NCBI GenBank assembly: GCA_964525635.1
Contig: CAZGJX010000059.1
Span: forward strand, 1 to 25,588
Source: an uncultured archaeon
GTDB taxonomy: Archaea > Asgardarchaeota > Lokiarchaeia > Sigyniarchaeales > SOKP01
DNA: 25,588 nucleotides
Direction: 5' to 3'
A program made the position numbers and the translations under genes. The notes under the pieces were generated by a model. It saw only the letters and a program-made list of their open reading frames with translations. It did not search any database and was not told where the DNA came from. Positions 9,185 to 15,737 of this stretch are shown piece by piece; positions within the stretch are counted from its first letter, which is position 1; each line of letters opens with the position of its first letter.

Positions 9185-10648
9185 TTATCCCCAAAAGGGT
9201 TTCCAACTATTCCATACATCCCATTTACTAACATTTTTAAAGTTATATAATATTCCTTTTAACCTATATGGACTTTTTAAAGTCTTAAAAATTTGTCTAG
9301 ATATATAACTTGGTCGCTTCATAAATTTTCTATGAGTATCTCTCAGTCTCTGCATAATTTCACTCAGAGGAATGGTAAGAATGGCTGTACCTGTCTCCCA
9401 GCATTTCTCAGGATCTATTTTTTTCTCCTTAACCATTTGATCCCAAATCCAATTTCCCGGAATAATACCTAAAATATGAAATTGTGGAAAATCAATATCT
9501 AATTTAAGCGATAAATCTAAGGTTTGAATTATTTCTTCTCGGGTTTCAATTGGAGCACCTACTATAAAATTAGCTAAAATCATATCAATACCCACTTTTT
9601 TAGAACTTTTTATTGCATCATGAACTTGAGTTAAAGTAATCTTTTTATTATACCAATCTAAAATTCTTTGTGAGCCACTTTCAACTCCATAGCTTATAAT
9701 TTTACATCCCATATGTTTCATTGCAGTTAATAATTCTTTGGAACTTTGATTTACCCTTCCTTCTGCCATCCAATTTAAATTCAATCTTTCTCTTCTAACT
9801 AAATTAGATAATGTCATCAATCTTTTTTTACTAATTGTAAAATTATCATCCACCCAAAGTAGATTTTTATAACCCTGATCTTCAAGATAAGATAATTCTT
9901 CTATAATATTTTCTGGGGATCTTGGACGCCATTTATTCCAAAACATGGCACTTGAACAAAATGAACATTTGTATGCACATCCTCTTGATGAGGACAAAGT
10001 TGTGAATTTTCCAATACCAATATCAAGACCTTCAACTTCTTGTTTATATTCTACATTTCCCAACAATTTTCTATCAGGAAAGGGTAATTCATCAATATTC
10101 TCCATAAGAGGCCTATCATTATTTCTGATAACCTTACCATTATTTCGATAAGTAAGACCTCTAATATCTTCAAATCCTTGCTCTTTCTCTAGTTTTTCAG
10201 CAATTTCTAAAAGAGTTCGTTCACCTTCTCCTCTGATACAAGCGTCAATAAAGGGGTATTTATTTAAGATTCTGGTATCATTAAAAGTCGCATGATAATT
10301 CCCAAATAGCACCTTCATGTTTGGATTTATTTCTTGTTTTGCTCTTCTAGCCATTTCTGCAGATGTGATACCTGTTCCAGCAGTTGTAATTGTAGAAAAT
10401 CCAAGTATATCTGGATCTTCGCTTTTTATCCATTTTAAAGTATCTTCAATTGATGTACCTCTAGCAAATTGATCAAATATAGTTACATCATAATTATGTT
10501 CATTAAGGTACGTAGCTATATATAGAATTCCAATAGGAGGGAATCCATAAAATTCTATTTTTTCTTTATTATATCGTTCAGCTTCTTTTACGGTACCACA
10601 AAAAGTTCCTTTTCTTGGTGGTTTGGGAAATATTAAAGAGATTTTCAA
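9185..10648 (-). CDS. Cobalamin-binding radical SAM protein (class B methyltransferase-like)
   Basis: PPIGILYIA B12-binding N-terminus, RGEGE, SRGCAYKCSFC (CxxxCxxC), DDNF, GVESGSQRIL; TTG start. Confidence 0.93.
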   Translation of the reverse strand: MKISLIFPKPPRKGTFCGTVKEAERYNKEKIEFYGFPPIGILYIATYLNEHNYDVTIFDQFARGTSIEDTLKWIKSEDPDILGFSTITTAGTGITSAEMARRAKQEINPNMKVLFGNYHATFNDTRILNKYPFIDACIRGEGERTLLEIAEKLEKEQGFEDIRGLTYRNNGKVIRNNDRPLMENIDELPFPDRKLLGNVEYKQEVEGLDIGIGKFTTLSSSRGCAYKCSFCSSAMFWNKWRPRSPENIIEELSYLEDQGYKNLLWVDDNFTISKKRLMTLSNLVRRERLNLNWMAEGRVNQSSKELLTAMKHMGCKIISYGVESGSQRILDWYNKKITLTQVHDAIKSSKKVGIDMILANFIVGAPIETREEIIQTLDLSLKLDIDFPQFHILGIIPGNWIWDQMVKEKKIDPEKCWETGTAILTIPLSEIMQRLRDTHRKFMKRPSYISRQIFKTLKSPYRLKGILYNFKNVSKWDVWNSWKPFWG

Positions 10649-10975: not shown

Positions 10976-12784
10976 ATGGTTATTGAAAAAACAGTTTTGG
11001 ATGAAACTGAAAAGAAAATTAGAGAAAAGACTATTGGTGATTTTGAACAAGAAGAATACGAAAAAGAACATAAAGAAGTCATCGAATGGAAAAAACCTCA
11101 TCAAGACTTGCTCTACAAAATCCTGAAGTATAACCCCATTGACCCTCTCAACGACCTTTACCATAAAATGATTGATTACTTTGGTTTCACTGAAAAAGAA
11201 AAAAAATTACAATGGTGGATTGCTAATGTTTGGGTAAAACAAGCAGCCCGTCTCATGTGGAGATTCGAAGCTACCTACGAAGATGGAGAAATGTTTCCAG
11301 AATACAGTGGGGGAATTGTCGTATCAAATCACGAGTCGCACTTAGATCCGTTTTAGCATTTTTATCATGAAACTCCTCAATACTATGAGGCTTCTGGCTA
11401 AGATTCTTAGCGATGGAACAATATCCTGCTTAATTTCTAAGCGGTAGAAAAGACTGGATGCGCTTGTGATAGTATAATTAACTATATGAGTAAGGATGAA
11501 AATTTTAAAACACCTATAGTCAAAACATTATTTAGAAACTTAAGTGCCTTCTCTCTGGGAGAGAGAGGAAATAAAGAGCAGGTAAAATTAGCATGGGAGA
11601 CTGCTAAAGAAAAAATAAAAGACGGAGAATGGATTGGACTTTTTCCAGAAGGAACTCGAAGTATGGATGGAGAACTTGGAGAATTTAAGACAGGCGCTGT
11701 TAGATTGGCGATTGAATGTGGCGCCCCAATTGTACCAATGGCGATTCTTGGCTCAAAAGATGCACTTCCAAAGGGTAATCTTATTGGTACTCCTGTTCAA
11801 GTAAGAGTGAGAGTAGGAAAAGCAATATATTATGATGAATATAAAGATAGACTAACACCGAAATTAGCCAAGAAACTTACTAATGAGTTAAGACAAAAAG
11901 TCACTGATTTACGTGATGGAAAAGGTAATTTTTCTAAAATAAAAAGAAGATTTGAGGAAAAATCAGAGCTTTCTATAGGTTCTCCAAAAGATTCCATAAA
12001 AGAAACAGAAAAGAAAAGAGATTTTAAATATTGGTTGAAATATTATCAACATTTTTTATTAATATCTATTGATGATGCATGGATTAGTTTTTTAAAAACT
12101 TTAGATATATTTGGATTACGCTGGGATTTTCAAGAATTAGCTTGGCGTTTTAACCATGCGATTGTTGATTTCCTTACAAGTAATTTCTTTCCATATAAAT
12201 CAATTGGATATGAAAATGTTCCTGATAATGGAGCCGCAATCATATGTTCAAACCATAATTCTGAGTGGGATGTTATACTTAATGCTAAATGTGTTATAAA
12301 AGATAAGAATCGAATTTTATGGCAAATGGCAAAACAACAATTATTCCAAATTCCTATTGTTAATTCATGGATTAGAACGCATAATGCATTTCCATTAAAG
12401 AGAGGTGAGGGTGATAATGAATGCTATAAATATGCAAGGGAATTGCTTGATAAAGGAATTTTACTGATGATCTATCCAGAAGGATCCACATCTAATGGTG
12501 GTGGAGAAGTTCTTGAAGGTCATACAGGAGCGGTTCGTTTAGCTATTGAAGCAAAAGTTCCAATAATACCTGTTGGAATTACTGGTACTGAAAATACTTT
12601 TCCTAAACATGCAAAAACATTATATTGTGGTCATGGTTCAACCCTTAAAGCAGGAGAACCTTTTATGGAACATGCTCAATATTTTGATCAACCAATTCCA
12701 GATTATAAAGAACTGAAAAGATTAACTAGCAGATTAATGGATCGAATAAGAGATCTATTGGTATATAACAAACCTAATGCTTAG
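10976..12784 (+). CDS. Two-domain PlsC-like (lysophospholipid) acyltransferase interrupted by a 96-99 nt insertion
   Basis: ORF 10976-11356 ends at SNHESHLDPF. The same frame resumes at 11453 with TGCACDSIINYMSK...FPEGTRS. A second complete domain follows (SNHNSEWD...YPEGS). Intact-after-splicing versus pseudogene or split gene is unresolved. Confidence 0.85.
11354..11452. mobile_element. Small structured insertion (MITE/omegaRNA-like or intron-like element)
   Basis: Four in-frame stops (11354, 11399, 11408, 11438) and four hairpins: CCTCA/TGAGG 11375-11390, GCTAAG/CTTAGC 11397-11411, GGA/TCC 11415-11426, GCTTA/TAAGC 11428-11442. The flanks rejoin into a canonical PlsC block. Confidence 0.75.
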
Positions 12785-14044: not shown

Positions 14045-15737
14045 ATGAAAAAAGATAAAAAACCTCAAATTAATCTTCTTATATTTTTACTCATTGGTAT
14101 TGTTTTAATTTTAGTTCCTTTTCTGAGATTTTCAAAAATAAGCCATATGGGATTAATGAATAAGGACTATAATAGAGGAGAAAATAAACTTAACATTTCA
14201 GAAGATTCAATTATTTTAGGTTCAGAAAATATACCTCATACATATTCCACCTATTTTGGAGATAGTGGATATGATTAAGGATATTCAATTGCTGTAGATT
14301 CAACTGGATGTGTATATATAGCGAGTATAGCAGGTAGCCCCGATTTTCCAACTACATCAGGAGCATTAAATGAATCTTACTTTGATTCTGGACCTTATTT
14401 TGTCAGTAAAATTAGTGCAGATGGAAGAAAACTTATTTATTCCACATTTATCGAAGGATAGAGAACTGAAACAGGTTTTCCAATACCTCTTGCTGTGGAT
14501 TCTCAAGGGTGTGTTTATTTAGCAGGAATTATTGATTTCTTATCCTATGGAAATTTTCATACTACTTCAGGAGCAATGAATGAAACTTATAATGGAGGAT
14601 GGAGTGATGCCTGCGTATTAAAGTTAAGTGCTGATGGATCTTCACTAGTTTATTCTACTTTTCTTGGAGGTTGAGATATTAATGAAGTAAGTGCTATTGA
14701 TCTAGATTCACAAGGAAGCGTATATATAACGGGTATGACATATTGGATAAATAGTTCTAATCCTCTGAATTACGATTCTTTATCCGCAGATTTCCCAACA
14801 ACACCAGGATCTTTGAATGAAACTTACAATGATATTGATAATGAATATTCAGAAAATTATGTCTATAAATTAAATCCTGATGGATCTTCTCTTGAATATT
14901 CAACACTCTTTGGTGGAACAGGTGATGAATATGGACTAACAATATCAGTGGATTTAAATAACAATATGTATGTAACAGGACGTACATCTTCCTTAGATTT
15001 TCCCACTACTTCAGGAGTATTGAACGGAACATTGAACACAAGTGATGGTGATTTTGCATATAAAATAAGTGCAGATGGGTCTTCATTAATCTATTCTACC
15101 TATATTAATGAACATATTGATGCAAGTATCGATTCAGAGGGAAATTTATATCTTCTTGAATCTAAATATAATACTACTATTAATCCACCTTATAATGATT
15201 ATGATATTTGTGTATCAAAACTCAATAATGATGGGTCCACTTATCTACTCCACATTATTTGGTGGAATGGATTATGATGAACCTTTTTCAATAGACGTTG
15301 ACTCTCAAGGTAATACATATATAACAGGATCCACTGAAACAACAGATTTTCCCATAACTCCTAATGCCCTTATGAATGTTCATGATAATATCACAAAAGC
15401 ATTTTTAACAAAATTAAATGATAATGGAACTACACTTCTTTATTCTACATATCTCGGAGGTGACGAATCCACAATAGGTCTCTCGATCACTATGGATACT
15501 AAAGATAATATTTATATTTTAGGTGCTACAATCGCATCAGATTTTCCTACTACTCAAGGAACCTTATATGAATCCCCTATTGGTGGTGTTGATATGTTTA
15601 TTAGTAAGATTGGAACAAAAATTACACAAAAAGAGGGTATACCTGGATTTATAATTCCACATTTGATTTTAATTTCTTTGGTATCTTTTGTAGCATTTGT
15701 ATTATATTTTAAAAAGAAAATAAATATTTACAGTTAA
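14045..15737 (+). pseudogene. SBBP (beta-propeller) repeat surface protein, disrupted
   Basis: N-terminal hydrophobic segment, repeated YSTxxGG / AVDSxGxVY / DFPTTxGA units, and a C-terminal IPGF + TM anchor. In-frame stops TAA 14276, TAG 14459, TGA 14672, plus a frameshift near 15239. Confidence 0.88.

Follow-up and report, generated by a model that had tools for sequence, protein, structure and literature searches.

The window, the whole stretch of 25,588 nucleotides analysed here (contig CAZGJX010000059.1 of assembly GCA_964525635.1), comes from an uncultured archaeon placed by the GTDB in the Lokiarchaeia (order Sigyniarchaeales, SOKP01). It carries a tandem gene for a PlsC-type acyltransferase with two domains, whose reading frame breaks off after NHESHLDPF and resumes, in the same frame, at ...EKTGCACDSIINYMSK (Table 1). 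An earlier note, made from the sequence alone, had described both halves as lying in one frame and the insert between them as holding four stop codons; the two open reading frames (10976-11356 and 11486-12784) are indeed frame-matched, and in-frame read-through from DPF to EKTGCAC meets TAG, TAA, TAG and TAA. The first exon shares 65-72% identity with the N-terminal part of orthologues that have no interruption, and the second is 77-81% identical to the orthologues; both are otherwise intact, with every catalytic motif present.

Orthologue alignments, which the note had proposed as a check, define the empty site as DPFF|TG. In three genomes of the same genus, and in family-level matches beyond them, the PlsC gene is one open frame of about 550-584 amino acids, and the three same-genus genomes read GAT CCA TTT TTy ACN GGA at the site. 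In the window, 98 nt (11355-11452) replace the last two bases of the second phenylalanine codon, a net gain of 96 nt. The motif D-PFF-x-G is invariant in all 55 further intron-less loci inspected, and 14 residues separate the catalytic aspartate from the MSK block in 54 of 55 inspected homologues. The note had also argued that a single residue between DPF and the following block would match the usual PlsC spacing, and that residue is phenylalanine in 55/55 intron-less homologues. A scan of the family found the gene in 112 of 135 genomes, among which the window genome is the only one with a gene split at the insert site. The gene is absent from the other 23 (about a sixth), so its loss is tolerated. 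In one further genome (G004, contig C9, locus L102) the match to the orthologue falls into two pieces in different frames, about 120 nt apart at most, and the linker (query residues 260-417) is unaligned; a deletion may account for this break, or else a further intron or a frameshift.

The surroundings of the gene differ between species. Just upstream of PlsC, the sister species L021 has a gene for a HAD-family hydrolase (L021 1761-2522), a place taken in the window by a divergently oriented B12-binding radical SAM gene (9185-10648, minus strand), so the operon head upstream of the window gene is rearranged. Downstream of PlsC, a coding region contains a unit of about 210-250 nt repeated in tandem in five diverged copies (14343-15582, repeat families D1 and D2), which probably encode a repeat-domain surface protein.

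Table 1. Features of the interrupted PlsC gene and related loci. Positions are those of the window, except where a contig (C) of the window genome, G000, is named; splice registers and helices are candidates.
Feature	Position	Strand	Basis or remark
Tandem PlsC-type acyltransferase gene, two domains	10976-12784	+	Pfam PF01553
Exon 1	10976-11355	+	ends in NHESHLDPF plus UA in the 99-nt register; ORF and Pfam PF01553 match
Exon 1, alternative end	11356	+	under the 96- and 97-nt registers
Exon 2	11455-12784	+	rest of acyltransferase domain 1 and whole of domain 2; Pfam PF01553, E = 7e-50
Exon 2, alternative start	11453	+	under the 96-nt register
Helix h, 5' strand (AUCC)	11346-11349	+	would pair with 11456-11459 (GGAU)
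Helix H, U-tract	11351-11354	+	would pair with the A-tract 11447-11451 (GAAAA)
Lineage-specific addition, 38 nt	11354-11391	+	at the putative 5' splice site; holds the UAG and hairpin 1 (11375-79/11386-90)
Segment homologous to sister 60/61-nt introns	11392-11452	+	alignment A1, shuffle tests; holds hairpin 2 (11397-402/11406-11)
Conserved 3' hairpin (hairpin 3)	11426-11444	+	14-nt core identical in three species
99-nt register	11356-11454	+	candidate intron; register scans, constrained folds
96-nt register	11357-11452	+	positional homologue of the sister introns
97-nt register	11357-11453	+	best paired, out of frame
EndA paralogues	C18:18795-19022; C105:10281-10529	-; +	ORFs of 203 and 206 aa
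RtcB, single gene	C119:10187-11494		PF01139, 554 bits
Motif-anchored introns	C17:44839-44869; C4 (RNase HII), near 30100; C1 (MoxR)		C4 and C1 on the minus strand

The insert is genuine DNA and no assembly artefact, since separate samples and assemblers give the same insert at the same length. Seven contigs from separate samples and different assemblers carry it at identical length; Logan contigs from two other salt-marsh samples (runs X5 and X6) span it, and its length is unchanged in six further Logan or JGI contigs from different samples. Over 2.1 kb the only difference is a T>C change at 11427, inside the insert, found in five of these six. Neither the source run X1 nor run X2 yielded contigs matching the stretch, which may be a false negative. 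The insert is single-copy in the 4.45-Mb assembly: the search for further copies advocated in the note, made here by BLAST and exact patterns, found none at unrelated sites. BLAST of the genome returned only AT-rich or coding coincidences of 14-30 nt, and look-alikes of the hairpin turned out to be coding coincidences in UvrA- and transketolase-like genes. Exact 22-24-mers of the insert were absent from JGI metagenome contigs and GTDB genomes, and no Rfam family matched at the gathering score; at E <= 10 the sole hit was a chance match to SAM-II on the minus strand.

Four hairpins are predicted in the insert, the number given in the note (two listed in Table 1, and 11415-17/11424-26 and 11428-32/11438-42). 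The fold has a z-score of -2.47, and 4 of 200 shuffled sequences fold equally well. Pairing between the insert's ends and between its flanks, also claimed in the note, exists in the sequence, but the exon-exon complementarity is no more than the amino acids impose: synonymous recoding gives p = 0.14, and intron-less orthologues show similar complementarity. On these two grounds we dismissed the exon-exon helix as a sign of selection. The insert also contains an internal duplication of about 31 nt (11394-11424 against 11425-11452).

By searching for truncated N-terminal PlsC products, we found inserts at the same PlsC codon in two other Lokiarchaeia. One is 60 nt long (L021-L024, including GCA_019894835.1) and reads GAC CCG TTC + 63 nt + ACG GGT; the other is 61 nt long (L025) and reads GAC CCG TTC + 64 nt + ACG GG, where the contig ends. 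In alignment A1, from which the row of the intron-less G001 is left out, positions 11392-11452 of the window correspond to these inserts, with similarity to the L025 insert over 11392-11427 (shuffle test, p = 0.004). The preceding 38 nt have no similarity to the sister-species inserts (p = 0.74-0.86). A 14-nt block, GCTTAATTTCTAAG, is identical in the three inserts, forms a hairpin and stands 11 nt upstream of the threonine codon in each. Only 45% of four-fold degenerate exon sites are identical between the window and L021 while this core is unchanged, which indicates that selection has conserved the hairpin. Beyond the core, paired bases show covariation between the three species (C-G, U.G, U-A), a test that the note had proposed, and the population variant at 11427 changes a U.G pair of the hairpin into C-G.

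Archaeal introns of the bulge-helix-bulge (BHB) kind are recognized by two 3-nt bulges on opposite strands of a 4-bp helix (H), flanked by helices h and/or h'. We calibrated this geometry on three mRNA introns of the window genome whose junctions are fixed by protein motifs: one in pyrG, with the unique junction GGTACAT|...|ACGAA that restores G-T-Y-E-R-F (motif GxYERF), one in the RNase HII gene, set by D-E-A-G-R-G-P, and one in a MoxR gene, set by the Walker A motif. Two further species, described as belonging to another genus or to two other genera, have a 32-nt BHB intron in the same tandem PlsC gene at a different site. These two introns (L100, G102:C21, about 470-505; L101, G105:C17, about 505-537) share the site QWW-x-A-Y|IYI, have all four pairs of H, bulges A-U|U and A-A|A or A-U|A, and an h' of at least 4 bp, and their predicted spliced products match the intron-less protein P0007.

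In the calibrating introns and the 32-nt ones alike, positions -6 to -3 of the exon pair with the same positions of the intron, frequently with a mismatch beside h. The 3' bulge is A-N|A in all seven motif-anchored mRNA introns, and the H pair adjoining helix h is mismatched in four of the seven. Three (MoxR, L021 and L025) also offer a better-paired but wrong register that is 2 nt shorter; because these perfect registers are out of frame, the best pairing alone mis-predicts the cut. The A-N|A bulge, the mismatch and the offset of 2 nt from the perfect register may together form a lineage-specific signature of Lokiarchaeial EndA substrates.

With this geometry, the L021 and L025 inserts each have one good in-frame BHB register, which would restore DPFL|TGAAC in L021 and DPFF|TG in L025. 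Helix h is ACCCG/CGGGU (5 bp in L021; 4 bp or more in L025, whose contig stops there), H has three pairs and one U.U mismatch, and A-U|A forms the 3' bulge. On its 3' strand, H adjoins the conserved hairpin, immediately in L021 and after a single spacer nucleotide in L025. Because about 30 nt, with another hairpin, separate the 5' cut from the conserved hairpin, the 5' site would lie in a loop, a relaxed arrangement of the hBH or bulge-helix-loop type. The perfect register that is 2 nt shorter is out of frame in both.

The junction in the window is degenerate. Its U-tract (UUUU, 11351-54) can slip on GAAAA (11447-51), giving rise to registers of 96, 97 and 99 nt. The 96-nt register has the 3' bulge A-G|A and a weak h, reduced by three synonymous differences, and leaves a UAG where phenylalanine is otherwise invariant. 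Of the BHB-compatible registers, only that of 99 nt is free of stops; it yields DPF-Y-GCAC, a product one residue shorter than every orthologue, and takes this residue from the conserved 14-residue spacing. Its H has three pairs and a mismatch, its h is AUCC/GGAU, and its position, the best-paired register plus 2 nt, follows the rule of MoxR, L021 and L025; its 3' bulge is A-C|U, unlike the A-N|A of all seven validated introns. The complementarity of h is found equally in the intron-less G001 and is therefore inherent to the Asp-Pro and Gly-Cys codons. The note's statement that the insert fails a strict BHB test is right only in part: a strict hBH can be drawn (h 11346-50/11455-59, H 11351-54/11448-51), but it cuts out 97 nt and leaves the frame. 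No register in the window has all the features of the validated introns. Automated one- or two-step excision of nested or sequential BHBs under the empirical rules returned no open product, and the 38-nt segment has no acceptable BHB of its own in any equivalent register. Reading of the UAG as sense was rejected on stop-codon use: TAG is an ordinary stop codon in the window genome, ending 227 of 1557 long open reading frames, like TGA. Spliceosomal-type GT...AG boundaries were rejected on inspection, as every available pair would take out 98 or 103 nt and put the two halves out of frame.

The full-length protein tree, (window,(L021,(G002,(G001,G003)))), has support of 99-100% and rejects a clade of the intron-bearing window and L021 sequences (p-AU 0.0045). 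Because the intron-bearing sequences do not form a clade, the simplest history would be a single gain in the ancestor of the genus, followed by one precise loss, in G001-G003. The sequence left there, TTT TTy ACN, is the outcome predicted by excision at the proposed junctions. Between the two intron-bearing lineages, dN/dS is 0.11 in exon 1 and 0.12 in exon 2, and comparisons that include the window lineage give 0.11-0.15 (exon 2: 0.12-0.15), no different from the 0.08-0.15 between intact PlsC genes. Since the exons have stayed intact and constrained across a dS of about 1, it appears that the insert must be removed at the RNA level now, or must have been for most of that time.

Candidate enzymes are encoded in the window genome: two EndA-family genes (PF01974, 102 and 68 bits) and a single gene for RtcB. 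Two EndA genes are consistent with a two-subunit (alpha-beta)2 endonuclease, and the EndA of Asgard archaea has been reported to be of the broad-specificity (alpha-beta)2 type (PMC5829648; bioRxiv 10.64898/2026.10.13.758758).

Our preferred explanation, to which we give a probability of about 0.75, is that the insert is an archaeal BHB-type intron in the tandem PlsC pre-mRNA, relaxed and enlarged in the window; for a BHB-intron origin as such, we consider the case very strong. EndA would cut the intron and RtcB would rejoin the exons. The ancestor of the Lokiarchaeial genus would have acquired the intron, in a single event, as a 60-nt element that may have consisted of two 30-nt hairpin units; at least three lineages would have retained it and one would have lost it precisely. 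Helix h would form, in the sister species, between the Asp-Pro codons of exon 1 and the Thr-Gly codons of exon 2, and helix H between the four exon bases that follow and the four intron bases preceding the last two. The 3' cut would fall within the 3-nt bulge A-U|A, with the conserved 3' hairpin stacking on H as the internal helix h', and the 5' cut would fall where a large loop begins, which makes this a relaxed hBH or bulge-helix-loop.

In the window, the 38-nt addition at the 5' end would have enlarged the intron to 96-99 nt. If the gene is still productive, the likely cuts would be 11355|11356 and 11454|11455, removing 99 nt and leaving ...DPF-Y-GCAC... Because the 96-nt register leaves a UAG, the 97-nt register is out of frame and the 99-nt register is atypical, we would give a full-length product from the window copy an even chance at best. 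A bolder reading, which we think less likely than not, is that intron sliding rescued the nonsense codon created by the addition; the micro-exon parse described below is its alternative. EndA cleavage would have shifted by -1 nt at the 5' site and by +2 nt at the 3' site as the helix of U-tract and A-tract slipped and AUCC re-paired with GGAU, turning the G of the UAG intronic and assembling a new tyrosine codon (UA|U) across the junction. The analysis shows the homology of the inserts, their position, the phylogeny, the selection on the exons, the presence of the host enzymes and the junction geometry in the sister species; that splicing happens at all, and which register the window uses, we infer.

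A competing view, which we think a serious contender though not a probable one, holds that the ancestral 60-nt BHB intron was functional and that the gene has only just died in the window species, leaving an intron relic. The 38-nt addition would have landed at the boundary of helix H and the 5' bulge, and EndA would cut after the UAG (96 or 97 nt) or not at all, so that only a 126-aa fragment is made, possibly alongside a separately initiated C-terminal protein. The UAG in place of the invariant phenylalanine codon in the positionally homologous register fits this view, as do the weakening of h by three synonymous differences in that register, the lack of a register passing all empirical rules, a 38-nt segment without its own BHB, and the absence of the gene from 23 of 135 family genomes. 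It is harder to reconcile with exons that are otherwise intact and keep all catalytic motifs, with the dN/dS of 0.11-0.15 in comparisons including the window lineage, with the availability of an open 99-nt register, and with an intact 3' hairpin that the sole variant in 2.1 kb, itself intronic, strengthens. The note had offered a recent inactivating insertion as its fallback; for the whole element this is wrong, given the homologous inserts and the constrained exons of the sister species, but it is a possible description of the 38-nt addition at the 5' splice site. Excision of two introns around a 3-nt micro-exon, with 11354-11391 (38 nt) and 11395-11452 (58 nt) removed and UUC (11392-11394) kept, seems improbable. 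The product, DPFF|TGCAC, would be identical to the orthologue consensus, 11392-11452 is homologous to the sister-species region, and, reasoning from the sequence, once the 38 nt were gone the 58-nt part would form an H of the ancestral type (UUUU/GAAA) with the 5' bulge U-C|U. The 38-nt part, however, has no acceptable BHB in any equivalent register, and the fit of the product weighs little, as an AT-rich insert of 99 nt offers an in-frame phenylalanine wherever it contains a TTY triplet.

Explanations from outside the BHB system fare worse. A miniature transposable element, or an IS200/IS605-type end (omega-RNA-like, minus strand), inserted in the gene would agree with a hairpin-rich insert whose minus strand is open throughout; we judge it very unlikely, as the insert is single-copy in the genome, has no exact 22-24-mers in the metagenome contigs or GTDB genomes searched and no Rfam match, its hairpin look-alikes are coding coincidences, and homologous sequence occupies the same codon in three species. 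Group I and group II introns have a conserved core (P3-P9 or domains I-VI) spanning hundreds of nucleotides, and programmed bypassing of the T4 gene 60 type relies on matching take-off and landing codons that flank the gap. We give the least credence of all to a translational bypass element or a novel, group-I-like mini-intron that would splice itself. Removal of 11354-11452 (99 nt) would indeed give an exon ending in U and an insert ending in G, and the stop directly follows the last sense codon as in T4 gene 60, but no group I or group II model matched even at E = 10 and the 98-nt insert is far below the size of known ribozyme cores. Bypassing would take off from UUU with AAG as the codon before ACU and no phenylalanine landing codon before the threonine, and in the inserts of the sister species the take-off position is not followed by a stop codon. 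Separately, an inversion of coding sequence was rejected: the minus-strand frame is open but has no PlsC similarity, and the length does not fit. For the note's central proposal, a new miniature intron-like element, the intron part finds support in the sister-species homologues, the selection on the exons, the precise loss in three species and the presence of EndA and RtcB; the new class and the group-I-like chemistry do not.

The PlsC intron would thus be of the known BHB, or tRNA-endonuclease, kind and not a new class of intron. In our literature searches, BHB introns within protein-coding sequences were described essentially only for crenarchaeal cbf5, and we found no report of them in Asgard protein-coding genes. 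The cbf5 pre-mRNA intron, the nearest published parallel, occurs in Desulfurococcales and Sulfolobales and is patchy, with gain and loss among close relatives (PMC2738675). The window intron would share with it the BHB type, an often relaxed motif and the place within a protein-coding gene; the patchy distribution and the hetero-oligomeric EndA of the cbf5 hosts are further likenesses. The window intron differs in lying in a lipid acyltransferase gene of an Asgard archaeon of the Lokiarchaeia, in forming four hairpins over 96-99 nt, and in a predicted 5' cut in a large loop instead of a 3-nt bulge, with splicing that is here predicted from DNA. It would share its junction geometry and presumed enzymes with the MoxR, pyrG and RNase HII mini-introns of the same genome, but it is two to three times longer, its h' is not adjacent to the 5' bulge, its sequence is conserved across species, and its junction in the window is degenerate, with a UAG at the exon end. 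One canonical bulge and a central helix, with the second site in a loop, recall the non-canonical archaeal tRNA introns (hBH, HBh' and bulge-helix-loop). Such relaxed motifs are cut by (alpha-beta)2 or epsilon2 EndA (PMC5829648), and the window intron falls inside the 11-175 nt range of tRNA introns (quoted in PMC2738675).

Unlike cases known from a single genome, the PlsC locus adds comparative support for an Asgard mRNA intron: a codon shared across species, purifying selection on the exons, a hairpin conserved far above the neutral level and precise loss in one clade. It also points to a route of intron growth in which duplication and insertion may take the length from about 30 nt to 60 nt and then to 99 nt, and suggests that such lengthening can put the host gene at risk. 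With the genome's other mini-introns, it opens to direct test the idea that the tRNA endonuclease of Lokiarchaeia routinely splices mRNA. The sliding of the junction, if true, would be a natural case of splice-site migration under endonuclease-type splicing, in the closest archaeal relatives of eukaryotes.
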